Positions 954 to 26,614 of a DNA stretch of 64,000 bases are shown here, piece by piece (the stretch's first letter is position 1; each line of letters begins with the position of its first letter). Under the pieces are notes generated by a model. The model was given only the letters and a program-made list of their open reading frames with translations. It did not search any database and had not been told where the DNA came from. Source of the DNA: Escherichia coli. GTDB lineage: Bacteria; Pseudomonadota; Gammaproteobacteria; Enterobacterales; Enterobacteriaceae. The translations under genes were made by a program, and so were the position numbers. The DNA is taken from assembly GCF_003790525.1 (NCBI RefSeq), contig NZ_CP033635.1; one strand, written 5' to 3'.

Positions 954-2241
954 AATATTTACCTGTGAACTGATAACGGAAACGACCATTTTCCAGTTGT
1001 CTTGTGACAGAGAGAAAACGGACAGATGGCTCGCTGAAGCGCTCTGCCAGCTGGTTAGCCGGGAGTAGCGTCTGTATCTGCAGGTCATACTCTTTCCACG
1101 GTGGCTGGATGATGTTTCCGTTTTCATCAGTGAAGCTGTTATTGACTTCCTGCCAGTCAATCTGCAGTTGAACTGACTGTGCGAGCGTGGTCAGTCGTTC
1201 CTGCAGGTCTCGGGTTTCCGGAAGGGAATCAACCGGGACAGGATTATCCGGGAGCCGGAATGTGACCGGCAGTGCAACGCCGCCAGAGTTCCCTTCAGGC
1301 ATAACAATAAACGGCCGGGTGTCTGTGAGTTCAGTGATGCGCCGGATGAAGGCTGTCACTGTCGTGCCTGCTGTATTGGTGTATGAAGACCGCAGATTAC
1401 CGCTGTTACCGTCAGTAGAACATTCAGCCAGGGTATAACGCCATCCGGCAGCAGACAGTGGCGTCTGGTTCCATGTTGTGCTGCATTGCCGGATAAATTC
1501 TCCGCTCTCAGGCTGCCTCGTCCATGGTGGCGTTATACGTGCTTCAGCTGCTTTCCGGGCGCTTTCTTCCCGTTCCGCTTTTTCCGCCTGCCAGATTTCA
1601 TAACGTTGCCAGCCGTACCACGATGCGCCAAGCAGCGTGATGATGAGTAAGGCTGTCATTAACTGTGGGCCTCTGGACACGGGGAGCAGACGCGCTTCTG
1701 CCGGATGCTTTCTGGTGCTGATCAGGTTTGACAGCGGTAGCGGGATACACCGACTGTCTGGTGAAAAACCGTCAGGTTCGTAGCGTACCCAGCCGTTTTC
1801 CGGTTCCGCATTGAGCATCAGGAACGTGTTGCGGGCTTCCGTGATTTCAGTCGGGGTACCGGTAACGTCGTTAACCAGAATGCCATTAATCACCGATACA
1901 AACGCACAGGTGAGTTCAGCGTCGTCGTTCTCGATGATGAAAATGGCATACCCACCTGATTTGAGTAGCGGGCGTATTAACATTGCCAGTGACAGGCACT
2001 GGCGAATGTTACGGGGGATATCTGCATCCTGACGACTGAGCAGGGCAATCATCATTTCATCACCGTTTTCACCGTCGTGGTTGTGGCAGGAAAGATACAG
2101 TTCTGCGCCCTGTGACCGGGCAAACCGCCGGGCATTCCGGTAACCGGGAGGTATGCTCTTCCAGTCAAGGCCCGCAAGGAATGCCTGTTTACCCGATATC
2201 AGTGAAACCGGACGAATTTTTTTCTGCATTGACCCGTTCAA
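943..2241 (-). CDS. pilO: Type IVB pilus biogenesis protein PilO-like
   Basis: 432-aa ORF with one internal hydrophobic segment; size and position between secretin and pilP match R64 PilO (about 431 aa). Confidence 0.5.
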   Translation of the reverse strand: MNGSMQKKIRPVSLISGKQAFLAGLDWKSIPPGYRNARRFARSQGAELYLSCHNHDGENGDEMMIALLSRQDADIPRNIRQCLSLAMLIRPLLKSGGYAIFIIENDDAELTCAFVSVINGILVNDVTGTPTEITEARNTFLMLNAEPENGWVRYEPDGFSPDSRCIPLPLSNLISTRKHPAEARLLPVSRGPQLMTALLIITLLGASWYGWQRYEIWQAEKAEREESARKAAEARITPPWTRQPESGEFIRQCSTTWNQTPLSAAGWRYTLAECSTDGNSGNLRSSYTNTAGTTVTAFIRRITELTDTRPFIVMPEGNSGGVALPVTFRLPDNPVPVDSLPETRDLQERLTTLAQSVQLQIDWQEVNNSFTDENGNIIQPPWKEYDLQIQTLLPANQLAERFSEPSVRFLSVTRQLENGRFRYQFTGKYYAR

Positions 2242-2252
2242 GGGAACCTCCG

Positions 2253-3878
2253 TCAGATTACGTGCGGTGTGATCAGCACAACCAGAATGGTGTCATCGTC
2301 ACCGCTGTCAGTGCCGCCACCCAGCCCGAAGAATGCCGGGCTGCCGACGCCCTGGCGCACGGATTTGCTGCCGGACTGCCGGAATCCGCTGAGAATGACG
2401 GTCTGACCTGATTTCAGGTCGATGGTCTGGTTGATGGTTTTCAGGTCTACCGTGGGCACCTGTGCCCGGCTGCCGCCGCTCTCGAACACCTCAAAGGTGG
2501 GTTTGTCGGAGAGGTTCATGCTGAAGAGCAGCTGCAGGCTGCGCGCATCCGGCTGAATGAACGGCAGCAGGGTCATGTTGAAGCCGGTGGTGATGGTGGC
2601 GGCGTTCAGGGAGGTGCTGGTCCCGACGTTGGCCGTGGTGTCGGTGGTGACACCTTCGATATAGCCCTGCTGGCTGGCCACCTGCATGGGCACCGGCGTC
2701 ATGTTTTTGGTGACGGCGGAGTTCTGTGTGACCACGCTGACGGTGCCCTGACTGGAGAGCGCCTTCAGGAAGGCCTTCGAGCCGGTGAGCTTACCGTCCA
2801 CAATGGAGACGCCACTGGTGATGATGTCATCGGCGGCACTGCTGAATGCCCCTCCCAGCGTGAGGCCGAGACGTCCGTCGCTGAAGACGGCATTCCAGTC
2901 AATGCCGGCCTGGTCACGGCGGGTTTTTCTGACGCTGAGGACTTCCACGTTCAGCACCACCTGACGTCGCATCTCGCGGTTACGTGCCTCCACAAAACGG
3001 CTGACGGTGTCGAGGACCCGAGGGGTGTCGGTGACGGTGAGAAAGCCGGTGGCAAGCACCATCCGGCCGGTCCCGGGGGTCAGCATGGCACCGACGGCAT
3101 TTTTCAGGTCCTCATAGAGGGTGGACTTCATGTCGACCGTGGTGGTCTGGGTGTTGCTGGCCTCCCCGCTGAGGGTGCCGGCGTTACTGCCGGTACTGCT
3201 GCCGGATGAGGAGGAGGCGGTGCCGCTGACCACCCGGGCGTTGTAGGTCACCTGAGAGTCCATGTAGGTGACCGGGAAGGTGCGTGTCTCCAGCCAGTAA
3301 AAGGTGATGGCGCGCCGGTCACTGTCGTAACGGTACGAGATACCGAGCCGGGAGGCGACGGTATCCAGCAGCTGCCGCAGCCCGGTGGCGCTGAGTTCCG
3401 GCAGGACGGCACCGCCGCCCGGGGGGATGACCTGTGCGCCACTGCCGACGGCGGCCAGCGGCACCATGCCGTTCGGGTCCGGTGCGGGGATTGCGCCTGT
3501 CAGCTGCTGTGTGGGGCCGGTGGTGGCCAGCGCCTGCCAGACGTCGGCGGTGATGGTCACGGGGATACCGCAGCTTCCGGTGATGCGCTGGGCTATCTGC
3601 CGCAGGCTGATATCCCGGCGGGTGTTGATGATGATGGGGCAGCCCGGCAGGCTCTGGTGTGCGGGGCTGACGCTGACAGGGGAGGGGTTGATCCACTGTC
3701 GCGTGGTCTCCGTGACCACCGGCCGGGATTTACGGAGTTCGCCCGCGTGCCGGCGCGCTTTCTCCAGTGTGGCGGTGGCGTCTTTTTCCGTGTTGCTGAT
3801 ACGTTCGGCCGTACCGCAGCCTGACAGCAGCAGGGCGACGGCAGTCAGTGGCAGGAGCATGTGTTGTCTTTTTTTCAT
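2253..3878 (-). CDS. pilN: Type IVB pilus secretin lipoprotein PilN-like
   Basis: Start at 3878 gives MKKRQHMLLPLTAVALLLSGC (lipobox LSGC) preceded by an AAGGA RBS; C-terminus ...TILVVLITPHVI is secretin-like; about 541 aa. Confidence 0.7.
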   Translation of the reverse strand: MKKRQHMLLPLTAVALLLSGCGTAERISNTEKDATATLEKARRHAGELRKSRPVVTETTRQWINPSPVSVSPAHQSLPGCPIIINTRRDISLRQIAQRITGSCGIPVTITADVWQALATTGPTQQLTGAIPAPDPNGMVPLAAVGSGAQVIPPGGGAVLPELSATGLRQLLDTVASRLGISYRYDSDRRAITFYWLETRTFPVTYMDSQVTYNARVVSGTASSSSGSSTGSNAGTLSGEASNTQTTTVDMKSTLYEDLKNAVGAMLTPGTGRMVLATGFLTVTDTPRVLDTVSRFVEARNREMRRQVVLNVEVLSVRKTRRDQAGIDWNAVFSDGRLGLTLGGAFSSAADDIITSGVSIVDGKLTGSKAFLKALSSQGTVSVVTQNSAVTKNMTPVPMQVASQQGYIEGVTTDTTANVGTSTSLNAATITTGFNMTLLPFIQPDARSLQLLFSMNLSDKPTFEVFESGGSRAQVPTVDLKTINQTIDLKSGQTVILSGFRQSGSKSVRQGVGSPAFFGLGGGTDSGDDDTILVVLITPHVI

Positions 3879-7539: not shown

Positions 7540-9157
7540 GCGGTTCAGACGTATGCTGCCCGGCACAAAGGTCACGGAGCCAGGCGTGGTCGCGCCGGTG
7601 ATACCGGCAGGGTTTTATGCGCCGCTCACAGCAGAAGCACTGTTATCACCAGAGCACAGGGAACTGAGGCTCAGGCAGGTATGGGATAACAATCCGATGC
7701 CCCGTGATGTATACGACAGGATGTGCCTTGCGCCACTCAGCCGGCTGTTGCTGAACACCCAGAATGTGCCGGCAACACGGGAAGGACGGTGGTCCCGTGC
7801 CGGTGGATTTGGTGATCTGACGGTACTGTACACCACGTATGCCGTTCGTCTGGCAAGAGGGTACATGTTTCCACCGGATGCGACCCCGGAAGACCAGGCG
7901 GCTCAGGCCGCAGTCTGGCATACGGTGATTTTCTGGTCAGCGCTGTTTTACCACCTGCCCCTGCTGGCGCACCTTGAGGGGGAGCTGCTGAGTGGTCGGG
8001 GCTGGCAGCCAGGGATTTCTGTGCCTGACGAACCTTTCCGTTTCCGGTTCAGGAAGACGGCGCCGCAGGGCACGGAAGCGCAACAACTGGCGGCCCTGAC
8101 TGCCGGCACGCTGTTACCGGACGGCGCAACGGCCTGGCTTGTGACGGCGCCGGGGGCGCTGCAGAATCTGGCCGGGGCGCTCTGGCATCAGCATCCCGGG
8201 ATGGCGCTGATTCGTGATGTGCTGCAGGAAGCGGCAAGGCAGACAGAGAGTCCGCTGAATACCTGCGCTGTCACTGCGCCGGTTACTGCGGAGGCTTCAG
8301 CAGACATCCGTCCTGCTGACCCGGTGGTGACCGGCAGCACGGACAGTGTGATGGCAGTCACTGAGGTGCAGCCGGCAGAGGAGGTGAAGACTGAGAGCGT
8401 GCAGACAGAGACTGAAGGTGGTGGTGAGTCCGCCGGAGCGTCAGAGGTGCCGTCCGCACAGCAGGAACTGACGGTTCAGACAGCGCCAGTGGTGACGGCA
8501 GATGATGAAGCGGTCAGTGCTTCTCCTGCGGATCAGGACACAGCAATGCTGCTGAGTCTTTTTTCAGCAGATGAGTCCGAAACTGCTGAACGGGATAATG
8601 GGGATGTGGTGATGCTGGCTGATGAGGAAGAAGCGCAGGATCTCACCGATGGACCGGATGAAGGCGATTCGTCTCCGGGCAGTATTCATGAATCGCCGTA
8701 TCTGGTGGAGAGTGACGCGTCGGTTAATCAGTCCGTATCCGGGGAATACCGCGCAACAGAAGTGAATCCGCTTACCGGAGATGATCCTGATTTAAAGGGA
8801 GAGACGTTTTTGGACTGGCTTAAAGCAGGGCTGAACAGTGGTGAGATATCATTTAACCAGAAAGGCGACAAAATACACATTGTTGCAGGACTGGTTTTCC
8901 TGCCGGTACCAGGCATTTTCTTTGATTACCTGAAAGCAGTGCAGCTTCCCGGGGACAAACGCCCGATTGTTCAGTCATCATTTGAGCGGCTCTGTATCAA
9001 TAAACGCCGTGATGACCAGCGTTTTTATTTTGCTCGTATTGCTGAGGAACCCGGGAACTGTGCACGTTACAAAACAGTCAAAGGTTACCTGGTCAAAGGA
9101 CGTAGTCTGATGCATGAAAGTAAACTGAAAGACAGTCCTTATCTTTTTATTTCGTGA
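7514..9157 (+). CDS. Putative conjugative relaxase (TraI_2 / MOBH-like) with acidic low-complexity linker
   Basis: ORF 7469..9157; start chosen at ATG 7514 (AAGGAAG RBS), overlapping helicase stop; C-terminal segment (IHIVAGLVFLPVPGIFFDYLK...) resembles TraI_2_C; family assignment is from memory. Confidence 0.5.
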   Translation: MAWRERMFKRFRRMLPGTKVTEPGVVAPVIPAGFYAPLTAEALLSPEHRELRLRQVWDNNPMPRDVYDRMCLAPLSRLLLNTQNVPATREGRWSRAGGFGDLTVLYTTYAVRLARGYMFPPDATPEDQAAQAAVWHTVIFWSALFYHLPLLAHLEGELLSGRGWQPGISVPDEPFRFRFRKTAPQGTEAQQLAALTAGTLLPDGATAWLVTAPGALQNLAGALWHQHPGMALIRDVLQEAARQTESPLNTCAVTAPVTAEASADIRPADPVVTGSTDSVMAVTEVQPAEEVKTESVQTETEGGGESAGASEVPSAQQELTVQTAPVVTADDEAVSASPADQDTAMLLSLFSADESETAERDNGDVVMLADEEEAQDLTDGPDEGDSSPGSIHESPYLVESDASVNQSVSGEYRATEVNPLTGDDPDLKGETFLDWLKAGLNSGEISFNQKGDKIHIVAGLVFLPVPGIFFDYLKAVQLPGDKRPIVQSSFERLCINKRRDDQRFYFARIAEEPGNCARYKTVKGYLVKGRSLMHESKLKDSPYLFIS

Positions 9158-9210: not shown

Positions 9211-10200
9211 ATGAAAATAAATAATGCGGATAAGTGCTGGAATGATTTGATGGATGAGTTTTTTTTCTGCCGTTCAGTACGTGAAGCTACGGAGTGGAGC
9301 TACAGAAAGGTGCTGAACGGATTCCGTAAGTTTGTTGGCGGGACTCTGTTACCGGAAGATATCCGACAACAACATGTCAGGGAGTGGCGACGGGAGGTCC
9401 TGAAAAACCAGAAACGTTCAACTCATACATGGAACAACAAGGTACGCCATATGCGCGCTATCTTCAGTTTTGCTTCCTCATCTGAACTCCTGCATTTAAG
9501 TTGTAACCCGTTTGAGGGTATGAGCGTCAGACAGGAAAAGAAACGCAAAAAAACACTGACCCGGAAACAAATAAAACGCATCCTGCTGGTCCTTGAGCAG
9601 TTTCAGGAGGATGAAATGAACCTGAAGATGCACTGGAAGTGCGCCATTCGTCCGGCCTGGTACTGGATTATTGTGGTTAACACACTTCGCTTTACGGGGA
9701 TGAGGCTGAATCAGCTGCTGCATCTGCGCCTGCGGGATGTTAATCCTGAAGAACGGTGGATTGATTTATGCTCTGAAGGCAGCAAGACACATCATGAGTG
9801 GCGGATCCCGATGGTCAGTCATCTGGTTCCGGGGATAACCAGGCTGATGGATGAAGCGGTGAAACGTGGAGCCACGCCTGATGATTATCTTTTCCACTAT
9901 CATCGCTATGCTTTGCCTGTGTCTGAAGCATTATCGGTGAGCGGACCTCCGGAAGAGCAGAAGGTCAAAGGTTTTTTCCGGCGTCTGTCGAAAGAGTGTG
10001 GTTTTCAGGTATCTGCACATCGTTTCAGACACACTCTGGCAAGTACTCTGATGGCGGCACCGGAACGAAATCTGTACATGGTGAAAACCATGCTGGGTCA
10101 CCGGAATGTTTCAACGACACTGGAATATGTGGAGATGGATCTGAAGGGAACAGCACGTATACTTGAGGCCGAACTGTCAAAACTGACAGACGATCTTTAA
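9211..10200 (+). CDS. int: Tyrosine recombinase / integrase (329 aa)
   Basis: RBS AAGGTAA; catalytic-looking residues in LRFTGMR, HRFRHT, GHRNVSTT and LEYVE (R, H-x-x-R, H, Y); adjacent to tRNA-Phe 3' end. Confidence 0.85.
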   Translation: MKINNADKCWNDLMDEFFFCRSVREATEWSYRKVLNGFRKFVGGTLLPEDIRQQHVREWRREVLKNQKRSTHTWNNKVRHMRAIFSFASSSELLHLSCNPFEGMSVRQEKKRKKTLTRKQIKRILLVLEQFQEDEMNLKMHWKCAIRPAWYWIIVVNTLRFTGMRLNQLLHLRLRDVNPEERWIDLCSEGSKTHHEWRIPMVSHLVPGITRLMDEAVKRGATPDDYLFHYHRYALPVSEALSVSGPPEEQKVKGFFRRLSKECGFQVSAHRFRHTLASTLMAAPERNLYMVKTMLGHRNVSTTLEYVEMDLKGTARILEAELSKLTDDL

Positions 10201-11677: not shown

Positions 11678-13813
11678 ATGAAATCAATGAATATTGCCGC
11701 CAGTAGTGAACTGGTATCCCGACTTTCTACTCATCGCCGCGTGGTGGCGTTGGGAGATACTGATTTTACGGACGTCGCGGCAGTCGTCATTACCGCTGCG
11801 GATAGTCGCAGTGGCATTCTTGCGTTGCTTAAGCGCACCGGTTTTCATCTACCGGTGTTTTTGTATTCCGAACATGCTGTTGAATTACCTGCGGGCGTTA
11901 CGGCGGTAATTAACGGCAACGAGCAGCAGTGGCTGGAGCTGGAATCCGCAGCCTGTCAGTATGAAGAGAATTTGCTGCCACCGTTTTATGACACGCTGAC
12001 GCAGTACGTTGAGATGGGTAATAGCACCTTTGCTTGCCCTGGGCATCAACATGGTGCGTTCTTTAAAAAGCATCCTGCCGGACGCCATTTTTACGATTTC
12101 TTTGGTGAGAACGTCTTTCGCGCCGATATGTGTAACGCTGACGTAAAATTGGGCGATCTGCTTATTCATGAAGGATCGGCGAAAGATGCGCAGAAATTCG
12201 CAGCCAAAGTCTTTCATGCCGATAAAACCTATTTTGTGCTGAACGGCACATCGGCAGCGAATAAAGTGGTGACGAATGCGCTGTTAACGCGTGGCGATCT
12301 GGTGCTCTTCGACCGTAACAACCATAAGTCGAATCATCACGGCGCGCTGATTCAGGCGGGGGCGACGCCGGTCTATCTGGAAGCTTCACGTAACCCGTTT
12401 GGTTTCATTGGCGGTATTGATGCGCACTGTTTTAATGAAGAGTATCTGCGCCAGCAAATTCGCGACGTTGCGCCAGAAAAAGCCGACCTGCCGCGCCCGT
12501 TTCGCCTGGCGATTATTCAGCTGGGAACCTATGACGGCACTGTCTATAACGCCCGTCAGGTGATCGATACCGTTGGGCATCTGTGTGATTACATTCTGTT
12601 TGATTCCGCATGGGTCGGTTACGAACAGTTTATCCCGATGATGGCGGATAGCTCGCCGCTGCTGTTAGAACTTAACGAAAACGATCCGGGGATCTTTGTG
12701 ACCCAGTCGGTGCACAAACAGCAGGCGGGATTCTCACAGACGTCGCAGATCCATAAAAAAGATAACCATATCCGTGGACAGGCGCGTTTTTGCCCGCATA
12801 AGCGGTTGAATAATGCCTTTATGCTCCATGCTTCTACCAGCCCGTTCTATCCGCTGTTCGCCGCGCTGGACGTTAACGCCAAAATTCATGAAGGGGAGAG
12901 TGGGCGTCGGCTGTGGGCGGAGTGCGTTGCGTTGGGGATTGAAGCCCGGAAGGCGATTCTTGCGCGCTGTAAGCTGTTCCGCCCGTTTATCCCGCCCGTT
13001 GTTGATGGCAAATTGTGGCAGGATTATCCGACGTCAGTGTTAGCCAGCGACCGCCGTTTTTTCAGTTTTGAGCCGGGGGCGAAGTGGCACGGCTTTGAAG
13101 GATATGCCGCGGATCAGTATTTTGTTGATCCGTGCAAGCTGTTACTCACCACGCCGGGTATCGATGCCGAAACCGGCGAATATAGCGATTTTGGCGTTCC
13201 GGCGACGATTCTGGCGCACTATCTGCGTGAGAACGGCATTGTGCCGGAGAAGTGCGATCTCAATTCCATTCTGTTCTTATTAACTCCGGCGGAAAGCCAC
13301 GAGAAGCTGGCACAACTGGTGGCGATGCTGGCGCAGTTTGAACAGCATATTGAGGATGACTCGCCGCTGGTTGAGGTGTTGCCGAGCGTTTATAACAAAT
13401 ATCCGGTGCGTTATCGCGACTACACCCTGCGCCAGTTGTGTCAGGAGATGCACGATCTGTATGTCAGTTTCGACGTCAAAGACCTACAAAAAGCGATGTT
13501 CCGCCAGCAGAGTTTCCCGTCAGTGGTGATGAATCCCCAGGATGCGCATAGCGCTTATATTCGCGGTGAAGTGGAGTTGGTGCGGATTCGTGATGCCGAA
13601 GGGCGAATTGCGGCAGAAGGGGCGTTACCTTATCCACCTGGCGTGCTTTGCGTGGTACCCGGGGAAGTCTGGGGTGGGGCGGTTCAACGTTATTTCCTTG
13701 CACTGGAAGAAGGGGTGAATTTGTTGCCGGGATTTTCGCCGGAGCTGCAAGGTGTCTATAGCGAAACCGATGCGGATGGCATGAAACGGTTGTACGGTTA
13801 TGTGTTGAAGTAA
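11678..13813 (+). CDS. speC: Ornithine decarboxylase, constitutive
   Basis: 711 aa from MKSMNIAASSELV...; ORF-track start at 11594 is an upstream extension. Confidence 0.95.
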   Translation: MKSMNIAASSELVSRLSTHRRVVALGDTDFTDVAAVVITAADSRSGILALLKRTGFHLPVFLYSEHAVELPAGVTAVINGNEQQWLELESAACQYEENLLPPFYDTLTQYVEMGNSTFACPGHQHGAFFKKHPAGRHFYDFFGENVFRADMCNADVKLGDLLIHEGSAKDAQKFAAKVFHADKTYFVLNGTSAANKVVTNALLTRGDLVLFDRNNHKSNHHGALIQAGATPVYLEASRNPFGFIGGIDAHCFNEEYLRQQIRDVAPEKADLPRPFRLAIIQLGTYDGTVYNARQVIDTVGHLCDYILFDSAWVGYEQFIPMMADSSPLLLELNENDPGIFVTQSVHKQQAGFSQTSQIHKKDNHIRGQARFCPHKRLNNAFMLHASTSPFYPLFAALDVNAKIHEGESGRRLWAECVALGIEARKAILARCKLFRPFIPPVVDGKLWQDYPTSVLASDRRFFSFEPGAKWHGFEGYAADQYFVDPCKLLLTTPGIDAETGEYSDFGVPATILAHYLRENGIVPEKCDLNSILFLLTPAESHEKLAQLVAMLAQFEQHIEDDSPLVEVLPSVYNKYPVRYRDYTLRQLCQEMHDLYVSFDVKDLQKAMFRQQSFPSVVMNPQDAHSAYIRGEVELVRIRDAEGRIAAEGALPYPPGVLCVVPGEVWGGAVQRYFLALEEGVNLLPGFSPELQGVYSETDADGMKRLYGYVLK

Positions 13814-16766: not shown

Positions 16767-17819
16767 CTAAACCGGCGCGCCAGTGCGTAACTGCTGTAAC
16801 AAACGCTCCACGGGAGCCGCCAGGCCAACTGACGGCGGTTGCGCTAAGTTATACCAGAGCGCATTGCCTTCATCCATGCAGCCGGTGAATGACGACACGG
16901 GAAGCCACATAGGCACAATATCTAAGTGGAAATGGCTGAAGGTATGCCGAAACGCGGTCAGTTGCGTCAGGTTATCGGCAGCAATCTGCCGTTGCGCCAG
17001 CCACTGCCGCAAACTTTCTTCGTCGGCAAACTGTGGGAAACAGTATAAACCGCCCCACAATCCACTCGGCGGGCGTTGCGCCAGCAATACCTCATCATCA
17101 TGCTGTAACAGTAAAAAGTAACCCGTGCGCTCCGGTAGCGTCTGCTTTGGTTTTTTGCCCGGATAAAGCGACCAGCTATTGTTGGCGGCGGCAATACACC
17201 CGTTTTGTAGCGGACAGAGCGAACATTTCGGCTTCGAGCGCGTACAAATCATCGCGCCCAAATCCATCATCGCCTGATTAAACCGTTCCACGCCGACCGC
17301 GGGCGTCACCTGCGCGCTCAAACTCCATAGTTTATTCTCGACCTCTTTTTTCCCAGGCCAGCCGCTTACAGCATAGCAGCGCGCCAGCACCCGTTTGACG
17401 TTACCGTCGAGAATCGGAAAGTGCTTACCCAGAGAAAGCGAGAGAATCGCACCTGTGGTGGAACGCCCGACGCCCGGTAACGCCGCGACTTCTTCAAAGG
17501 TTTCCGGGAATTTACCGCCGTGTAAGGTCGCCACTTGTTGTGCCGCTTTATGCAGATTGCGCGCGCGGGCGTAATAGCCAAGCCCGGTCCACAAGTGGAG
17601 AACTTCGTCGAGCGGCGCATTGGCGAGATCGGTCACCGTTGGGAAGCGCGCCATAAAGCGTTCAAAATAGGGGATAACGGTCGCAACCTGAGTTTGTTGC
17701 AACATCACTTCTGAGAGCCATACTTTGTAGGGCGTCTTGTCAATTTGCCAGGGCAGCGTTTTCCGCCCGTATTTATCGTACCAGTCCAGAACCTGGGCTG
17801 AAAATTGCGACGCTTGCAT
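16767..17819 (-). CDS. mutY: Adenine DNA glycosylase MutY
   Basis: 350 aa from [20 protein letters not shown]...; 4Fe-4S cysteine cluster region present. Confidence 0.95.
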
Positions 17820-21266: not shown

Positions 21267-22274
21267 GTGAAAAAGCAATGGATTGTTGGCACGGCGCTGC
21301 TTATGTTGATGACTGGTAATGTCTGGGCAGATGGCGAACCGCCAACTAAAAATATCTTAAAAGATCAATTCAAAAAGCAGTATCACGGCATTCTCAAGCT
21401 TGATGCCATCACCTTAAAAAATCTTGATGCTAAGGGTAATCAGGCCACCTGGTCAGCGGAAGGCGATGTCTCTTCCAGTGACGATCTCTATACCTGGGTC
21501 GGTCAGTTGGCAGATTACGAACTGCTCGAACAGACCTGGACGAAAGATAAACCGGTAAAATTCTCGGCGATGTTAACCAGTAAAGGAACGCCCGCGTCTG
21601 GCTGGTCGGTGAACTTTTACTCTTTTCAGGCGGCAGCCAGCGATCGTGGGCGGGTGGTCGACGATATCAAAACGAATAATAAATATCTGATCGTGAATAG
21701 CGAAGATTTCAATTATCGCTTTAGTCAGCTTGAGACTGCGTTGAATACCCAGAAGAACTCGATTCCTGCGCTGGAAAAGGAAGTTAAAGCGCTTGATAAG
21801 CAAATGGTGGCGGCGCAGAAAGCAGCGGATGCATATTGGGGAAAAGATGCAAATGGTAAGCAAATGACCCGCGAAGACGCCTTTAAAAAAATTCACCAAC
21901 AGCGTGATGAGTTTAATAAACAGAACGATAGCGAGGCGTTCGCGGTTAAATATGACAAAGAGGTTTATCAACCGGCGATTGCGGCATGTCATAAACAGAG
22001 TGAAGAGTGTTATGAAGTGCCGATTCAGCAGAAACGAGATTTCGATATCAACGAACAACGGCGACAGACTTTTCTGCAATCACAAAAACTTAGCCGTAAA
22101 TTGCAGGATGACTGGATAACGCTCGAAAAAGGGCAATATCCGTTAACGATGAAAGTTTCAGAAATAAACAGTAAAAAAGTCGCGATTTTGATGAAAATTG
22201 ACGATATCAACCAGGCTAATGAACGCTGGAAAAAAGATACCGAACAACTGCGGCGCAATGGGGTGATTAAGTAA
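21267..22274 (+). CDS. yggM: DUF1202 periplasmic protein YggM
   Basis: 335 aa with signal peptide; K-12 neighbour of ansB. Confidence 0.85.
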   Translation: MKKQWIVGTALLMLMTGNVWADGEPPTKNILKDQFKKQYHGILKLDAITLKNLDAKGNQATWSAEGDVSSSDDLYTWVGQLADYELLEQTWTKDKPVKFSAMLTSKGTPASGWSVNFYSFQAAASDRGRVVDDIKTNNKYLIVNSEDFNYRFSQLETALNTQKNSIPALEKEVKALDKQMVAAQKAADAYWGKDANGKQMTREDAFKKIHQQRDEFNKQNDSEAFAVKYDKEVYQPAIAACHKQSEECYEVPIQQKRDFDINEQRRQTFLQSQKLSRKLQDDWITLEKGQYPLTMKVSEINSKKVAILMKIDDINQANERWKKDTEQLRRNGVIK

Positions 22275-22329
22275 CTCATGTTAAGTGCCTTTGCCGGATA
22301 ATATAAAAAGTTATCCGGCAAATTATTTT

Positions 22330-23631
22330 TTACATTAGCCCTAGTAGCTGTGGAATGAACAAGGATATTTGCGGGATGTAAGTGATCATCATCAACGCGA
22401 TTAACAATGCGGCATAAAATGGCAGCAATGGTTTGATCAAATGTTGAATCTTCACACCTGAAATAGAACAACCAACAAATAGCGCACTACCCACCGGCGG
22501 TGTTAACAGCCCAATACAAAGGTTAGCCACCATCATAATACCGAAATGTACCGGATCCATTCCCAGCTCTTGTGCAATCGGCAAGAAGATTGGTGTGAAG
22601 ATTAGTACAGCTGGTGTCATGTCCATAAAGATGCCGACAATTAATAAGACGATATTAATCAGCAGCAATATGACCAGTGGGTTATCAGAAATCCCCATCA
22701 ACGCGTCGCTGATCATATAAGGAATATCAGCATTGGTCATTGCCCAGGACATGCCCACGGAAAAACCGATCAACAGTAATACAATCGAAGTGGTAACAAC
22801 TGATTCCAGAATCAGTTTGGGTAAATCGCGCCATTTTACTTCCCGGTAAATCAGCACCGAGAGAATAAATGTGTAGACAACGGCAATCGCAGACGCTTCA
22901 GTTGCGGTAAAAATGCCGCCCAGAATGCCGCCCATCACAATGAACACCAGAAGCAAACTTGGTAAGGCATCCAGAAACGCTTTACAGGCCTGAGCGAAGG
23001 TTGCTCTTTCTGAAAGCGGGTAGCCACGGCGTTTAGCAATAATGCCGCAGACTATCATTACCGCGAGACCCATTAAGATCCCTGGCAAATATCCCGCCAT
23101 AAATAATGATGCTACAGAAACGCCGCCAGCTGTCAGGGAAAACACAATTAACACGTTTGAGGGCGGTATCAGTAATCCAGTAATACAAGATGAGACGTTT
23201 ACAGCGGTAGAAAATGCCGGATCATAACCTTCTTTGGTCTGAATGGGATTCAGTGTGCCACCAACGGCAGCAGCTGCCGCAACGGCTGAACCAGAAATGG
23301 AACCAAACATCATATTCGCCAGGACGTTCACATGACCAAGCGAACCAGGAACGCGGCCAACCATTACCTGGGCGAGGTTAATCAAGCGTATCGCAATACC
23401 GCCGCTGTTCATCAGCGTTCCGGCAAAGATGAAAAAGGGGATTGCCAATAGGGCAAAGTTATCCAGTCCATTAGCCAGTCGCTGCGAAACAGTGATTGCC
23501 GCGATATCCCAGGGAAACATCAAAAGCATTGAAGCTACAGTGGCAATACCGATTGAGAACGAAATGGGCACACCAATAAAGACCAGCACAAAAAAACAGC
23601 CAAATAGTGTAAGCGCGATATAACTATCCAT
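22330..23631 (-). CDS. TRAP transporter large permease (DctM family)
   Basis: 433-aa polytopic membrane ORF; forms operon with DctQ/DctP-like genes. Confidence 0.8.
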   Translation of the reverse strand: MDSYIALTLFGCFFVLVFIGVPISFSIGIATVASMLLMFPWDIAAITVSQRLANGLDNFALLAIPFFIFAGTLMNSGGIAIRLINLAQVMVGRVPGSLGHVNVLANMMFGSISGSAVAAAAAVGGTLNPIQTKEGYDPAFSTAVNVSSCITGLLIPPSNVLIVFSLTAGGVSVASLFMAGYLPGILMGLAVMIVCGIIAKRRGYPLSERATFAQACKAFLDALPSLLLVFIVMGGILGGIFTATEASAIAVVYTFILSVLIYREVKWRDLPKLILESVVTTSIVLLLIGFSVGMSWAMTNADIPYMISDALMGISDNPLVILLLINIVLLIVGIFMDMTPAVLIFTPIFLPIAQELGMDPVHFGIMMVANLCIGLLTPPVGSALFVGCSISGVKIQHLIKPLLPFYAALLIALMMITYIPQISLFIPQLLGLM

Positions 23632-24143
23632 TAACTGGCCTCCTGCGCAGGTTGTTTCAGTTGTTGAATGCTTTGATTAATAAAACACAAGGCATAAAAC
23701 ATCATCACCACTCCACTTAATGGCAGAATGATATATACGTATCCCATCGGTATTTGCATAGCGGCAGATACTTGTGATGTTGCCAGCGTTTTATCAATTA
23801 ATTTCAGGCCACCAGTCACAATGACCGAACCGGCAAAACCTAAAATGAGAATGTTAATGACTATACTAAGAAGTAATTGCTTGCGCTTATTCAGGGCGAG
23901 AGCAAATAAATCGATAGAGAGATGTCTCTGCGCGCCGACGGTATATGCAGCACCTAATAATCCTACCCAGATCATCAAAAAGCGTGCCAGCTCATCGGTT
24001 AATGTACTTGGCTGGTTAAGTACGTAGCGGCTAAATACTTGCCAGACTACGCATACAACCAGAGCAAGCATGACGGCGACAGAAAACGCGGCAATGACGC
24101 GGTCTACCGCAAGTTTCAGGCGGTTAAATATCATTGTAAGCAT
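23631..24143 (-). CDS. TRAP transporter small permease (DctQ family)
   Basis: 170 aa, four hydrophobic segments; start overlaps the DctM ATG. Confidence 0.75.
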   Translation of the reverse strand: MLTMIFNRLKLAVDRVIAAFSVAVMLALVVCVVWQVFSRYVLNQPSTLTDELARFLMIWVGLLGAAYTVGAQRHLSIDLFALALNKRKQLLLSIVINILILGFAGSVIVTGGLKLIDKTLATSQVSAAMQIPMGYVYIILPLSGVVMMFYALCFINQSIQQLKQPAQEAS

Positions 24144-24178
24144 CCTGGAAAATCAGGGCCAGAGACTGGCCCGAAATA

Positions 24179-25165
24179 TTATTGAGCAGCGTTATCGAAT
24201 TTCTCTAACAAAGCAGCTTGTTTTGGATCTTTTTTGAAGTCGTCAAACAGAGGTTGAACTGCGGCACGGAATGGGGCTTTATCAACCTTAACGATTTCAC
24301 CACCCATAGCTTTCGCCTGAGCACGTGTGTCAGCGTCAATTTTTTCCCACAATTTTTGTTGATAAGCTTCGGATTTCTTCGCCGCTGTTTCGAGGATTTG
24401 TTGCTGTTCTGGGGTTAATTTATTCCATGTTTTGGTGGAGATAACCAAAAAGTCAGGAATTGAGGCGTGTTCATCTTCAGAAAAGACTTTGGCAATTTCG
24501 ATATGTCGAGTCTGCACCCAGGAAGGTACATTATTTTCTGCTCCATCCACTACGCCTTGTTGCATCGCAGTATAAACTTCGCCAAATGAAATTGGAGTGG
24601 GTGAGCCACCCATCAGTTCAATCATTTTGATGGTGGTCGGGCTTGGCTGAACACGAATTTTCAGCCCTTTAAGATCTTCTGGCTTAGTAATCGGTTTTTT
24701 CGCATAGAAACTGCGTGTACCCGCTACATAAGCTGATAAAGCAAAAAAGCCTTTGTCTTTTGTTGAGTCCATAATTTCTTTACCAACTTCACCAAAAACC
24801 ACTTTGTTGAAGTGCACCTGATCTTTAAATAAGAACGGCAAATTATAGATAGCATAAATATTATCAAAAGACTCCAGATCACTGGCGGAACCTTTGGTCA
24901 TATCCAGTGCGCCATTTTGCAACAATTCCATAGTTTCTCGCGCATTACCCATCTGGCTGCTGGGATAAATACGGATCACCATATTACCTTTTGACAGCTG
25001 TTTTACCTCTTTCGCCAGCTCTTCAAAACTCTGATGTACAACATGACTTCTTTCCAGGTTGTGTGCTAACTTTAACGTCACTTTTTCTGCGGCGTTTACG
25101 CCAGTGCTAACCAGAGCCAGCAAGGATGCGCAGACTAATGAGCGGGTAAATGACCTCATTTTCAT
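24179..25165 (-). CDS. TRAP transporter substrate-binding protein (DctP/SiaP-like)
   Basis: 328 aa with signal peptide; motifs YPSSQMG, AGTR (carboxylate-binding Arg) and GSPTPISFGEVY resemble SiaP-type binding proteins. Confidence 0.8.
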   Translation of the reverse strand: MKMRSFTRSLVCASLLALVSTGVNAAEKVTLKLAHNLERSHVVHQSFEELAKEVKQLSKGNMVIRIYPSSQMGNARETMELLQNGALDMTKGSASDLESFDNIYAIYNLPFLFKDQVHFNKVVFGEVGKEIMDSTKDKGFFALSAYVAGTRSFYAKKPITKPEDLKGLKIRVQPSPTTIKMIELMGGSPTPISFGEVYTAMQQGVVDGAENNVPSWVQTRHIEIAKVFSEDEHASIPDFLVISTKTWNKLTPEQQQILETAAKKSEAYQQKLWEKIDADTRAQAKAMGGEIVKVDKAPFRAAVQPLFDDFKKDPKQAALLEKFDNAAQ

Positions 25166-25376
25166 AAAAAAACTCCCTGTTGAAGGATGGAAATTGGTTG
25201 ATATCTAATTGTGCTTATCAGTGCTTTGTGCGACAAATTGGTTAACCTGTCTGACAACTTGTCTATGTTTATCACAACTTGAAATAAAGTCAGAAATTAA
25301 ATATTAAATTTGTGCGCCAGGTTGTACATGTTTATAATCAATAAATGATGAGTAAATATTCACTAAATATATATAA

Positions 25377-25395
25377 TAAATATCGTCGATATTTA
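25377..25395. promoter_or_regulatory. 19-bp palindrome in TRAP operon upstream region (candidate operator)
   Basis: TAAATATCG-T-CGATATTTA, perfect palindrome about a central base, in the AT-rich 312-bp region upstream of the DctP-like gene. Confidence 0.4.
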
Positions 25396-25477
25396 TTCAG
25401 TAAGAAATATATTTTTGCCGAAGTTAATTAACGGGGGGTAAAAGAAGTGATTAATGCGCCCGCAGGCGCATTAATGA

Positions 25478-26614
25478 TTACTCAGCGAGGAATAATTCAA
25501 GAAGTGAGTTTAAGAATAATTTACCATGTTCCGTTATCTGCCAGTAATCCGCACATTCTGTGAGATAACCCTGAGCGATGGCCTCGTCTAACTGAGAGCG
25601 AATAACTTCTTCAGAAAGGCCAGTATACTGGCTAAACTCCACGCGCGGCGCGGCTTCCAGCAGACGGAAGCGATTCATAAAGAACTCAAACGGCTTATCT
25701 GCGGCTTCGACATCACGCTGGCTTTCCAGATATCTTCCCTGCATAAAACCACGCGGATGACGCGTTTTGGTGGTACGCAGAATGCGCCCATCCGGGAAGG
25801 TCACTTTGCCGTGCGCGCCGCAGCCAATACCGATGTAGTCGCCAAAACGCCAGTAGTTGAGATTGTGCTGGCACTGATAACCTGGTTTGGCGTAAGCGGA
25901 TGTTTCATACTGCTGATAGCCCGCTGCGGTTAATAACTGATGCCCCTGTTCGAATATATCCCACAACGCATCGTCGTCCGGCAGCACCGGCGGGCGAGAG
26001 CCAAACAGCGTATTGGGTTCGATGGTCAGTTGATACCAGGAAAGATGCGGCGGATTCAGTTCAATAGCCTGGCGCAGATCGCCTAGCGCCTCTTCCAGTG
26101 ATTGATCCGGCAGCCCATGCATCAAATCAAGGTTAAAGCTACGTAACCCTAAACCGCTCGCCAGCTTCGCAGCTCGTTTCGCTTCTTGCGGGCCATGAAT
26201 GCGCCCAAGTCGTTTCAGCTTTTCTTCGCTAAAACTTTGCACACCAATAGAGATGCGGTTCACACCAGCACGCTGATAATCGACAAAGCGATCGGCTTCT
26301 ACCGTACCAGGGTTCGCTTCCATAGTAATTTCTGCATCCGCTGCCAGCGGCAAACGCGCACGCACGCCGTCCAGCAGCGTTTGCATCGCCGGGCCGGAAA
26401 GCAGGCTCGGCGTACCACCGCCAATAAAGATTGTCTTTACTTCACGGCTCTGAGCGTAAGCCACATCGTTGTCCAGATCGCTAAGCAGATGCTGAACATA
26501 ATCGTCGTGCGGCACTTCTCCTTTCAACGCGTGAGAGTTGAAATCGCAGTACGGGCATTTCTGCACGCACCACGGGATGTGAATGTAGAGACTCAGCGGC
26601 GGTAATTTAACCAT
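25478..26614 (-). CDS. hemW: Heme chaperone HemW (radical SAM family)
   Basis: 378 aa; CxxxCxxC (CVQKCPYC) radical-SAM motif. Confidence 0.9.

Follow-up and report, generated by a model that had tools for sequence, protein, structure and literature searches.

The interval between yggM and hemW in this Escherichia coli chromosome (positions 22275-25477 of the window, by which we mean the whole 64,000-nucleotide stretch analysed) is filled, according to the ORF list of the window, by three open reading frames in one orientation on the minus strand, dctP, dctQ and dctM, which together encode all three components of a DctP-type TRAP transporter (TC 2.A.56). The operon is ancestral at this position in the Enterobacteriaceae and not an insertion; its absence from K-12 and from about 73% of sequenced E. 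coli is due to loss. On balance, we favour the reading that dctPQM encodes a high-affinity hexuronate importer belonging to the ExuR/UxuR regulon.

All three TRAP genes are intact. They adjoin on one strand and their matches to PF03480, PF04290 and PF06808 lie far over the gathering scores (Table 1), so that the Pfam and NCBIfam assignments bear out the initial annotation, which had read a DctP-Q-M operon between yggM and hemW from the sequence. The ATG of dctM overlaps the stop codon of dctQ by one base, which suggests translational coupling. For dctQ an alternative start, the ATG at 24134, gives a protein of 167 aa that matches the 504-bp RefSeq annotations in other E. coli. The hairpin in the gap between dctP and dctQ may act as an attenuator or as an mRNA stabiliser favouring surplus binding protein; an Rfam scan returned no match over threshold. 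Among the window ORFs there is no regulator gene in or beside the yggM-hemW interval, as had been remarked earlier, and no catabolic gene adjoins dctPQM.

Table 1. Genes and predicted control elements in and around the yggM-hemW interval (window positions).
Feature	Position	Strand	Description	Evidence or remarks
yggM (flank)	21267-22274	plus	DUF1202	
yggM terminator	22290..22322	plus	hairpin with T-run between convergent yggM and dctM	stem also 3' of dctM stop
dctM	23631..22330	minus	large membrane subunit, 433 aa	PF06808 E 1.9e-121; TIGR00786 474 bits (cut-off 268)
dctQ	24143..23631	minus	small membrane subunit, 170 aa from first ATG	PF04290 E 1.5e-30
dctP-dctQ gap hairpin	24156..24172	minus	GC-rich hairpin with T-rich tail	terminator-like site by scan
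dctP	25165..24179	minus	periplasmic substrate-binding protein, 328 aa	PF03480 E 6.8e-84; TIGR00787 284 bits (cut-off 175)
Shine-Dalgarno GGGAG	25173..25177	minus	7 nt upstream of dctP ATG	read from sequence; GGAG kept in orthologues
Box 2	25223..25239	minus	AATTTGTCGCACAAAGC; centre 21 bp downstream of box 1 centre	6.7 bits
Half operator	25235..25247	plus	AAATTGGTTAACC, even-type, UxuR/ExuR-like	in spacer between boxes 1 and 2
Box 1	25244..25260	minus	GntR/FadR-type palindrome AAGTTGTCAGACAGGTT; putative ExuR/UxuR operator	19.2 bits
TGTGA	25272..25276	minus	possible CRP half-site	centred about 16.5 bp upstream of box 1 centre
hemW terminator	25450..25475	minus	hairpin; parts hemW from TRAP promoter region	same hairpin in Salmonella
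hemW (flank)	26614-25478	minus	TIGR00539	

The suspicion that the operon does not occupy this site in K-12 proved correct: in an MG1655-derived genome the yggM-hemW interval measures only 154 bp, of REP-like sequence. The same interval is 242 bp long in O157:H7 and 68 bp in APEC IMT5155. Distribution among complete E. coli genomes is patchy, with the operon found in 1492 of 5426 (27%) and at least 80% of the region kept in 1460; it is present in ST131 and, among STEC isolates, in O103 and others, and absent from K-12, O157:H7 and some B2 strains. The gene order rdgB-hemW-dctPQM recurs in Salmonella, Citrobacter, Pseudocitrobacter, Kluyvera, Klebsiella and Phytobacter, and the Dct proteins show identities there on a par with those of hemW and rdgB; in at least seven genera the operon adjoins hemW and has diverged as much as the core genes that flank it. 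Within E. coli, where alleles are up to 5% divergent and dS is similar to that of the flanks, the operon is under purifying selection (dN/dS 0.01-0.18, compared with 0.04-0.07 for hemW); against Salmonella, dS is saturated for both operon and hemW. The adjacency of hemW and dctPQM across genera, the flank-like divergence and the dN/dS values within E. coli together indicate that K-12 lost the operon.

By sequence and predicted fold, DctP is closest to hexuronate-binding TRAP proteins. Its N-terminus (MKMRSFTRSLVCASLLALVSTGVNA/AE) has the n-h-c layout typical of a Sec-type signal peptide, called here by eye from the sequence, with predicted cleavage after VNA (residue 25), and DctP is thus a predicted exported binding protein. 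The nine best PDB sequence matches (E 1e-58 to 1e-67) are 4OVR, 4N15/4LN5, 4X8R, 4MHF/4MIJ, 4N91, 4N8Y, 4XFE, 4PF8 and 4P3L, and the top Foldseek matches of the AlphaFold model (pLDDT 92.8) are the same EFI TRAP binding proteins, with TM 0.85-0.87 and rmsd 1.9 A. Apart from 4N91 and 4MHF, we take these entries to be hexuronate binders by their PDB titles. Apre_1383 (4N91) binds D-glucuronate, and Bpro_3107 (4MHF) binds both D-glucuronate and D-galacturonate (PMC7660916). The initial annotation had likened DctP to SiaP-type proteins by the strings YPSSQMG (residues 67-73), AGTR (148-151) and GSPTPISFGEVY (187-198). All three are found in the translation, but they are generic to the DctP family and the hexuronate-type proteins match better; SiaP itself scores E about 1e-40 at 28-30% identity (TM 0.77-0.82) and ranks below more than 15 hexuronate-type entries.

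The genomic context of the relatives points partly the same way, with hexuronate-gene neighbours at three of the five nearest 50%-cluster representatives of DctP. The locus of representative P0122 reads regulator-dctPQM-uxaA-uxaB-uxaC, with a regulator that shares 50% identity with E. coli ExuR and 39% with UxuR; next to P0123 lies a mannitol-dehydrogenase-family gene, and next to P0124 lie uxuA and a GntR/FCD regulator. In the ligand site, comparison with characterised binding proteins, which had been suggested with the initial annotation, gave partial agreement. DctP has the carboxylate-binding set R151/R171/N211, of which R171 aligns with R170 of STM3169 (R147 of SiaP); R151 and R171 are invariant in a 40-sequence alignment and N211 is kept in at least 90%. 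Five of the seven STM3169 ligand residues (N35, Q36, E74, R150, R170, N210, D237) are kept, but Q36 is replaced by L37 and E74 by A75. DctP has Ala in place of the Glu of the GSEKD motif, which is present in every one of the four top-matching proteins compared by alignment (4OVR, 4N15/4LN5, 4X8R, 4MHF). The same two variant positions occur in the uxaABC-linked P0122 (HNLE, and a non-acidic residue at 75).

The spacer between hemW and dctP, 312 bp in length, carries two boxes that resemble those of known ExuR/UxuR regulon members and are predicted operators. Box 1 is the sole zero-mismatch match to AAGNTGTNNNACANNTT within the window, agrees with the K-12 uxaC-exuT site AAGTTGTATGACAAGTT at 14 of 17 positions and is identical across divergent E. 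coli alleles, while box 2, at 6.7 bits in E. coli, falls short of its counterpart in other genera (AATATGTCATACAGAAA, 16.4 bits). The pair pattern TGTCNNACA-N12-TGTCNNACA occurs once in the window (0.01 expected), and two boxes 21 bp apart lie at -85 to -104 in all 30 orthologous promoters compared, including those of four genera with the operon elsewhere on the chromosome. Using a score matrix built from the TRAP-promoter boxes alone, K-12 DNA, which is without the operon, was scanned. In 30 kb the best match (18.0 bits) fell in the uxaC-exuT spacer, and in 40 kb the best match (22.0 bits) fell some 220 bp upstream of uxaB, where it occupies the far end of the spacer. Three matches of at least 18 bits were observed in 184 kb, one of them the operon's own box, where 0.065 were expected; an equally strong match (17.8 bits) falls within the coding sequence of an unrelated ORF, at window position 9356. 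The reading of the K-12 matches as ExuR sites rests on where they lie, at genes known to be under ExuR control; a published list of ExuR operators was not found, and a literature text search for the operator string returned nothing relevant. Conserved operator-like boxes resembling the exuT/uxaCA and uxaB sites would explain the absence of an adjacent regulator gene, and exuR is present in 5422 of the 5426 genomes.

Between the two boxes, the E. coli sequence AAATTGGTTAACCTGTCT agrees at 13 of 18 positions with the UxuR operator AAATTGGTATACCAATTT (PMC8092373). As a single UxuR box serving as the main operator it was rejected, being the spacer between conserved boxes and missing in other genera. 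It is retained as a possible additional site peculiar to E. coli, since the 13-mer AAATTGGTTAACC, which among orthologous promoters is found in Escherichia only and is not kept in other genera, is common to the uxuA upstream region: in 56 loci (985 kb), exact copies are confined to the TRAP promoters of E. coli and the region upstream of K-12 uxuA. Upstream of box 1, TGTGA or a one-base variant occupies an equivalent position in almost every orthologous promoter, with a poor right half, and may represent a CRP site.

From these features the following model can be proposed. The secreted binding protein would capture a carboxylate sugar acid at low concentration, most likely D-glucuronate and/or D-galacturonate, and hand it to the DctQ-DctM membrane unit for import driven by an ion gradient. 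The substrate would then enter the Ashwell pathway through UxaC, followed by UxaB-UxaA or UxuB-UxuA, the genes for which lie elsewhere on the chromosome, and DctPQM would serve as the high-affinity partner of the MFS carrier ExuT. Transcription would proceed from the operon's own promoter in the hemW-dctP spacer, probably repressed in trans when ExuR, the core hexuronate repressor, and/or the paralogous UxuR bind the two palindromic boxes, with possible additional input from cAMP-CRP.

Several other explanations were considered. The transporter could carry a different sugar-acid carboxylate (an aldonate, KDG/DKI, an unsaturated uronate or a host-derived acid), with the boxes serving a different regulator of the GntR/FadR family that has a motif no more than similar to the uxaB and exuT sites, and we regard this as possible though rather unlikely. 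Two ligand-contact positions are unlike those of every characterised hexuronate binder examined, uxa/uxu linkage was found neither in the window nor at any enterobacterial dctPQM locus examined, and the tnGTnnnACna motif is generic for the GntR/FadR family. The Mangrovibacter operon, moreover, adjoins a gene of the heparinase II/III and alginate-lyase-like kind. Neighbours in the genera with the operon away from hemW are inconsistent (a LysR regulator; a heparinase/alginate-lyase-like gene; GH31 and xyl genes), and assigning a ligand from them in Buttiauxella, Edwardsiella, Mangrovibacter and Enterobacillus was rejected for that reason. Against a different substrate stand the best sequence and fold matches and the three hexuronate-linked clusters, as well as P0122, which has the same two variant positions within a uxaABC cluster; against a different regulator, the matrix picks out two separate ExuR-controlled regions where 0.065 matches were expected. 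The name DctPQM implies a C4-dicarboxylate importer, and DctM has a weak CitMHS match (Pfam), yet the solved C4-dicarboxylate DctP proteins 9DSY, 9DTL and 9HT3 match much less well (E 1e-31 to 1e-33) than the hexuronate group (1e-67), and no dctBD-type two-component genes lie near dctPQM in the window, making this reading very improbable. We give just as little credence to a sialic-acid importer of the SiaPQM type. YPSSQ(M/L)G and the R/R/N triad are common to SiaP, and the membrane subunit resembles SiaQM structures (the best solved relative of DctM is the large permease of 7QHA/8B01, E 2e-92, then HiSiaQM 7QE5, E 7e-83), but the shared motifs are family-wide and SiaP is outranked as described above.

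As to origin, the GC content of the operon (0.445, compared with 0.536 for hemW-rdgB) and its patchy occurrence in E. coli could suggest a recently acquired, lineage-specific genomic islet. This is scarcely tenable given the same hemW-adjoining position in at least seven genera, the flank-like divergence and the flank-like dS within E. coli; in every genus the operon is lower in GC than its neighbours and its GC follows that of the host, and no bounding repeats, mobility genes or integrase genes were found at the operon in the window. It is also improbable that in E. coli the genes are a silent remnant undergoing decay and only happen to be intact. Loss has been frequent, E. coli has degenerate versions of box 2 and of the -10 region, and the sequence upstream of dctP yielded no consensus sigma-70 promoter; the dN/dS values, the 1460 genomes that retain most of the region and the invariance of box 1 among E. 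coli alleles all argue against decay. An apparent remnant in strain BS-04 was rejected as proof of decay and is not relied on here because its many homopolymer runs make the interval look poorly assembled.

For enteric bacteria, the hexuronates of mucus, glucuronide conjugates and dietary pectin are an important source of carbon. If the hexuronate importer reading is true, a high-affinity hexuronate uptake system missing in K-12 is present in roughly one in four E. coli strains, some clinically important lineages among them, and work on the ExuR/UxuR regulon of K-12 would have missed one ancestral member. The locus also illustrates how genes that look like an insertion in one strain can instead be an ancestral set that the reference strain has lost by deletion. 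Beyond the hexuronate and regulon reading, dctPQM is an ordinary accessory transporter of known type.

Among known systems, STM3169-STM3171 of Salmonella Typhimurium is likewise an orphan enterobacterial dctPQM operon that is absent from K-12 and without catabolic neighbours, and 4N15 is among the closest solved structures of both binding proteins. DctP and STM3169 are 50% identical over 262 aa (E 1e-94), with N, R, R, N and D of the seven ligand residues kept. STM3169 is nonetheless a paralogue at another chromosomal locus; it was rejected as an orthologue on its differing, primer-derived N- and C-termini and on the recovered sequence being only 50% identical. Its upstream region has even-type AAATTGGT boxes and no match with the matrix built here, Salmonella genomes carrying the hemW-linked operon have it as a system separate from STM3169, and a search with P0124 as query returned only Vibrio and Pasteurellaceae relatives, STM3169 not among them. 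STM3169 has a reported Kd for D-glucuronate of 0.17-0.25 uM (PMC7660916), and the system is reported to be under ppGpp and SsrB control and to be a Salmonella virulence factor (Herman et al. 2020, PMC7660916; Haneda et al. 2010, PMC3022708). More speculatively, the hemW-linked TRAP system might be a second enterobacterial hexuronate importer, within the ExuR regulon and with a ligand preference unlike that of STM3169, and its presence or absence might alter scavenging of micromolar uronate in the gut or host cells, as STM3169 does for Salmonella virulence. The L37/A75 pocket, the ExuR-type boxes and the uxaABC-linked nearest relative would suggest D-galacturonate or a related host or plant uronate as that ligand.

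The EFI hexuronate-binding proteins Bamb_6123, Xaut, Bpro_3107, Apre_1383 and Rsph17029_2138 are the best matches of DctP (E 1e-60 to 1e-67) and share R151/R171/N211 with it; 4N15/4LN5 are Bamb_6123, 4OVR is Xaut and 4X8R is Rsph17029_2138, and we take the ligands of these three proteins to be hexuronates. They differ in being only 34-38% identical by structure alignment and in the GSEKD Glu, and the N-terminal lobe of DctP is more SiaP/4NN3-like in sequence. E. coli YiaMNO, the 2,3-diketo-L-gulonate TRAP system, has the same three-part architecture and families, but its locus and gene order are different and it is no orthologue of dctPQM, which misses the NCBIfam equivalog cut-offs (YiaM 37.8 vs 260 bits; YiaN 296 vs 800 bits). 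GR21 of BEN2908 was set aside as a different accessory TRAP system. With the ExuT/ExuR regulon the operon shares the proposed substrate and the resemblance of its boxes to the uxaC-exuT and uxaB control regions; ExuT, however, is an MFS carrier without a binding protein, and membership of the TRAP operon in the regulon is a prediction. Lastly, SiaPQM of H. influenzae, P. profundum and V. cholerae offers the mechanistic template, DctM matching 7QHA/8B01 and 7QE5, although its binding protein is more distant and Q and M, fused in HiSiaQM, are separate genes here.

Three co-oriented ORFs occupy the interval between yggM and hemW, both identified as flanks by profile searches, and each gave a strong Pfam match to one TRAP component (see table). 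Cut-offs of NCBIfam TRAP subfamily models were also reached by the operon proteins, and dctPQM is a DctP-type TRAP transporter. The initial annotation had proposed a DctP-Q-M operon at this position, and the searches bear it out; all of its motif strings were recovered in the DctP translation and, as it had stated, no regulator ORF lies next to the operon. The dctM start and dctQ stop share one base, while dctQ read from its second ATG, the start used by the RefSeq annotation in other strains, encodes 167 aa. The gap between dctP and dctQ contains a GC-rich hairpin that may increase the amount of binding protein relative to the membrane subunits.

Features of the TRAP locus and of related sites (window positions unless a comparison locus is named)
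Feature	Coordinates	Strand	Properties
Matrix match within an ORF	9340-9372 (match at 9356-9372)		AAGATATCCGACAACAA, 17.8 bits; ORF 9211..10200 (+), 329 aa
yggM	21267-22274		DUF1202
yggM-hemW interval	22275-25477
dctM	23631..22330	-	433 aa; Pfam DctM, E = 1.9e-121
dctQ	24143..23631	-	170 aa; Pfam DctQ, E = 1.5e-30
GC-rich hairpin	24172-24156		dctP-dctQ gap
dctP	25165..24179	-	328 aa; Pfam DctP, E = 6.8e-84
Conserved block AGATATCAACCAATT	25192-25206		∼40 bp upstream of dctP; presumed 5' UTR
Box 2	25239-25223		AATTTGTCGCACAAAGC; putative operator
Box 1	25260-25244		AAGTTGTCAGACAGGTT; putative operator
Conserved block (A)GCGCACAAA(A)	25310-25319		∼150 bp upstream of dctP in orthologous promoters
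STnc130-like match	25355-25481	+	26 bits, sub-threshold (gathering score 55)
STnc130-like match, Salmonella (L004)	7593-7718	-	24 bits, sub-threshold
hemW terminator hairpin	25475-25450		end of hemW
Box-like site, K-12 (L051)	12150-12166		CAGATGTCATACAGGTT; 160 bp inside uxaC
Tandem weaker boxes, K-12 (L052)	17040-17085		AACCTGTCGTACCAATT and GGTTGTATGACTAAT, spaced by ∼22 bp; shortly upstream of uxaB
TRAP small-permease pseudogene fragment, E. coli BS-04 (L054)	2694-3394		yggM-hemW interval
Half sites upstream of STM3169, Salmonella (L055)	1130-1200		two of AAATTGGT type; ∼300 bp before start codon

The operon was detected in 1492 of 5426 complete E. coli genomes (1460 with at least 80% of the region), at 95–100% nucleotide identity. 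Every inspected copy sits at the same chromosomal site, and 1505 of the 1506 matches map to the chromosome. An O25b:H4 strain is among the carriers, as are STEC isolates, those of O103 included; the operon is missing from K-12, O157:H7, BL21-type strains and some B2 strains. The yggM-hemW interval measures 154 bp in an MG1655-derived genome, 242 bp in O157:H7 and 68 bp in APEC IMT5155. The K-12 interval is REP-like sequence, recognised by the REP consensus. In E. coli BS-04, an annotated TRAP small-permease pseudogene fragment lies amid long C and T homopolymer runs, and this interval has the look of faulty assembly rather than of a clean intermediate on the way to deletion. Hem­W-TRAP DNA of 99–100% protein identity to E. 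coli was also found in contigs (MAGs or genomes) labelled Collinsella sp., Bacillota bacterium and Alicyclobacillaceae bacterium (L006, L007 and L044), most likely mis-binned E. coli contigs or contaminants in public assemblies.

Binding-protein orthologues with 81–93% identity occur across the Enterobacteriaceae. A tblastn map recovered the order rdgB-hemW-dctPQM, followed variably by yggM, ansB and yggN, in some lineages of Salmonella enterica (the species-representative genome was not among the genome-scan matches), Citrobacter, Pseudocitrobacter, Kluyvera, Klebsiella, Phytobacter and, rearranged, Pluralibacter. Protein identities to Salmonella (DctP 90%, DctQ 81%, DctM 95%) match those of hemW (91%) and rdgB (93%), and synonymous divergence is saturated for the operon as well as for hemW. 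Within E. coli, dS is similar for the TRAP genes (0.04–0.25) and hemW (0.13–0.18), and a TRAP-gene dN/dS of 0.01–0.18 shows purifying selection on the genes where they are retained. The GC content of the operon is 0.445 versus 0.536 for hemW-rdgB, lower in every genus and tracking that of the host, and no bounding repeats or mobility genes were found around it. Synteny, flank-like divergence, host-tracking GC and the lack of such elements therefore mark the operon as ancestral and the event as a deletion from K-12, not an insertion here. The absence from this site in K-12, which the initial annotation had suggested, was confirmed by the MG1655-derived interval; the event behind it is placed in K-12, not in the window strain.

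The region from dctM to yggN varies between genera, and several Citrobacter and Klebsiella loci have no yggM. YggM itself has diverged much more than the adjacent gene products (63% identity to the Salmonella protein, 34–38% to those of Klebsiella and Kluyvera), with a dN/dS of ∼0.2 within E. coli and a GC content of 0.444.

Since hemW has its own terminator hairpin, the 312-bp spacer holds the operon promoter. Alignment of 30 orthologous upstream regions revealed two boxes, palindromic with a TGTCnnACA core and spaced by exactly 21 bp, at positions −85 to −104 relative to the dctP ATG. These boxes persist even at the different operon locations of Buttiauxella, Edwardsiella, Mangrovibacter and Enterobacillus. 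Against an expectation of 0.01, the paired pattern occurs once in the 64 kb of the window. The sequence separating the boxes is AAATTGGTTAACC in Escherichia alone; this 13-mer resembles the UxuR operator AAATTGGTATACCAATTT and recurs nowhere in 985 kb of retrieved loci except upstream of uxuA in K-12. A conserved TGTGA, placed 16.5 bp upstream of the centre of box 1, is a possible CRP half-site, which would put the boxes over the core promoter. A GATAAT −10 hexamer lies between the boxes in other genera; it is degenerate in E. coli, where a scan upstream of dctP detected no consensus promoter. Two further conserved blocks are listed in the table. A sub-threshold Rfam match to the enterobacterial sRNA STnc130, for which the shared GCGCCCGCAGGCGC terminator hairpin is mostly responsible, is found at the equivalent position in both E. 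coli and Salmonella, where it adjoins the hemW stop on the strand antisense to that gene.

A symmetrised 17-position matrix, built from the TRAP-promoter boxes alone, was scanned on K-12 DNA, which has no copy of the operon. The best match in a 30-kb region, at 18.0 bits, was AAGTTGTATGACAAGTT between uxaC and exuT, with a second of 14.4 bits just inside uxaC; in a 40-kb region it was AAGATGTCAGACAACTT (22.0 bits), ∼220 bp upstream of uxaB. No match of at least 12 bits was found in the 50-kb region holding gntP-uxuAB-uxuR. Per 184 kb, 0.065 matches of at least 18 bits arose in simulated sequence versus three observed, one being the operon's own box. The classical ExuR-controlled genes are uxaCA, exuT and uxaB, and exuR is present in 5422 of the 5426 genomes. 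Judged by these matches, dctPQM is predicted to belong to the ExuR/UxuR regulon; because the two regulators reportedly recognise a common motif and each binds at sites of the other, the boxes are not assignable to one over the other. No published description of this membership in E. coli was found in the literature searched. In K-12, the second box-like site in uxaC and the tandem weaker boxes near uxaB echo the paired arrangement seen in the TRAP promoter. The only strong match away from hexuronate genes, inside a window ORF, is probably due to chance (0.29 matches of at least 16 bits expected per 184 kb).

The nine best PDB sequence matches to DctP (4OVR, 4N15/4N17, 4LN5, 4X8R, 4MHF, 4MIJ, 4N91, 4N8Y and 4XFE) had E-values of 1e-58 to 1e-67, with SiaP (∼1e-40) and C4-dicarboxylate DctP (∼1e-32) far behind. 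Besides 4N91 and 4MHF, the entries are regarded as hexuronate-type binding proteins by their PDB titles. The AlphaFold model (pLDDT 92.8) matched the same set in fold (TM 0.85–0.87, rmsd 1.9 Å). D-glucuronate is the ligand of Apre_1383 (4N91), and both D-glucuronate and D-galacturonate are ligands of Bpro_3107 (4MHF) (PMC7660916). Representatives of the nearest 50%-identity clusters are 49–54% identical to DctP: P0122 lies in a regulator-dctPQM-uxaA-uxaB-uxaC cluster, P0123 adjoins a mannitol-dehydrogenase-family gene, and P0124 adjoins a GntR/FCD regulator and uxuA. The regulator linked to P0122 shares 50% identity with ExuR of E. coli and 39% with UxuR. P0122 and DctP have in common an HNLE..SHVV motif and a non-acidic residue at position 75, a weak hint of a galacturonate-type pocket. 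In the genera that carry the operon away from hemW, the adjoining genes are uninformative on the ligand.

Among known systems, the operon fails the E. coli YiaMNO models badly (YiaM equivalog 38 versus a cut-off of 260 bits; YiaN 296 versus 800). A further accessory TRAP operon, GR21 of the B2 strain BEN2908, comes with a UxuR-like regulator of the GntR type and a dehydrogenase resembling AllD (PMC12928451), which brings the TRAP systems of the E. coli pangenome to at least three. For STM3169 of Salmonella, the reported Kd for D-glucuronate is 0.17–0.25 µM, with binding via N35, Q36, E74, R150, R170, N210 and D237 (PMC7660916). Its sequence (285 of ∼330 residues) was recovered from a metagenome contig with a primer from PMC3022708, and the numbering reproduces N35, Q36 and E74. 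STM3169 is 50% identical to DctP over 262 aa (E = 1e-94) but differs in its termini and chromosomal locus, and is thus a paralogue. Two UxuR/ExuR-like half sites upstream of STM3169, of which PMC7660916 and PMC3022708 make no mention, would fit regulation of that paralogue by hexuronates. In the ligand-site comparison, of a kind suggested by the initial annotation, five of the seven STM3169 ligand residues are kept (N36, R151, R171, N211 and D238); Q36 and E74 are replaced by L37 and A75. Overall, the closest functional parallels to the transporter would be hexuronate TRAP systems, namely STM3169-71 together with the EFI hexuronate binders, and similarity and the contexts of its relatives support placing it in this functional group, with hexuronate as a candidate ligand.
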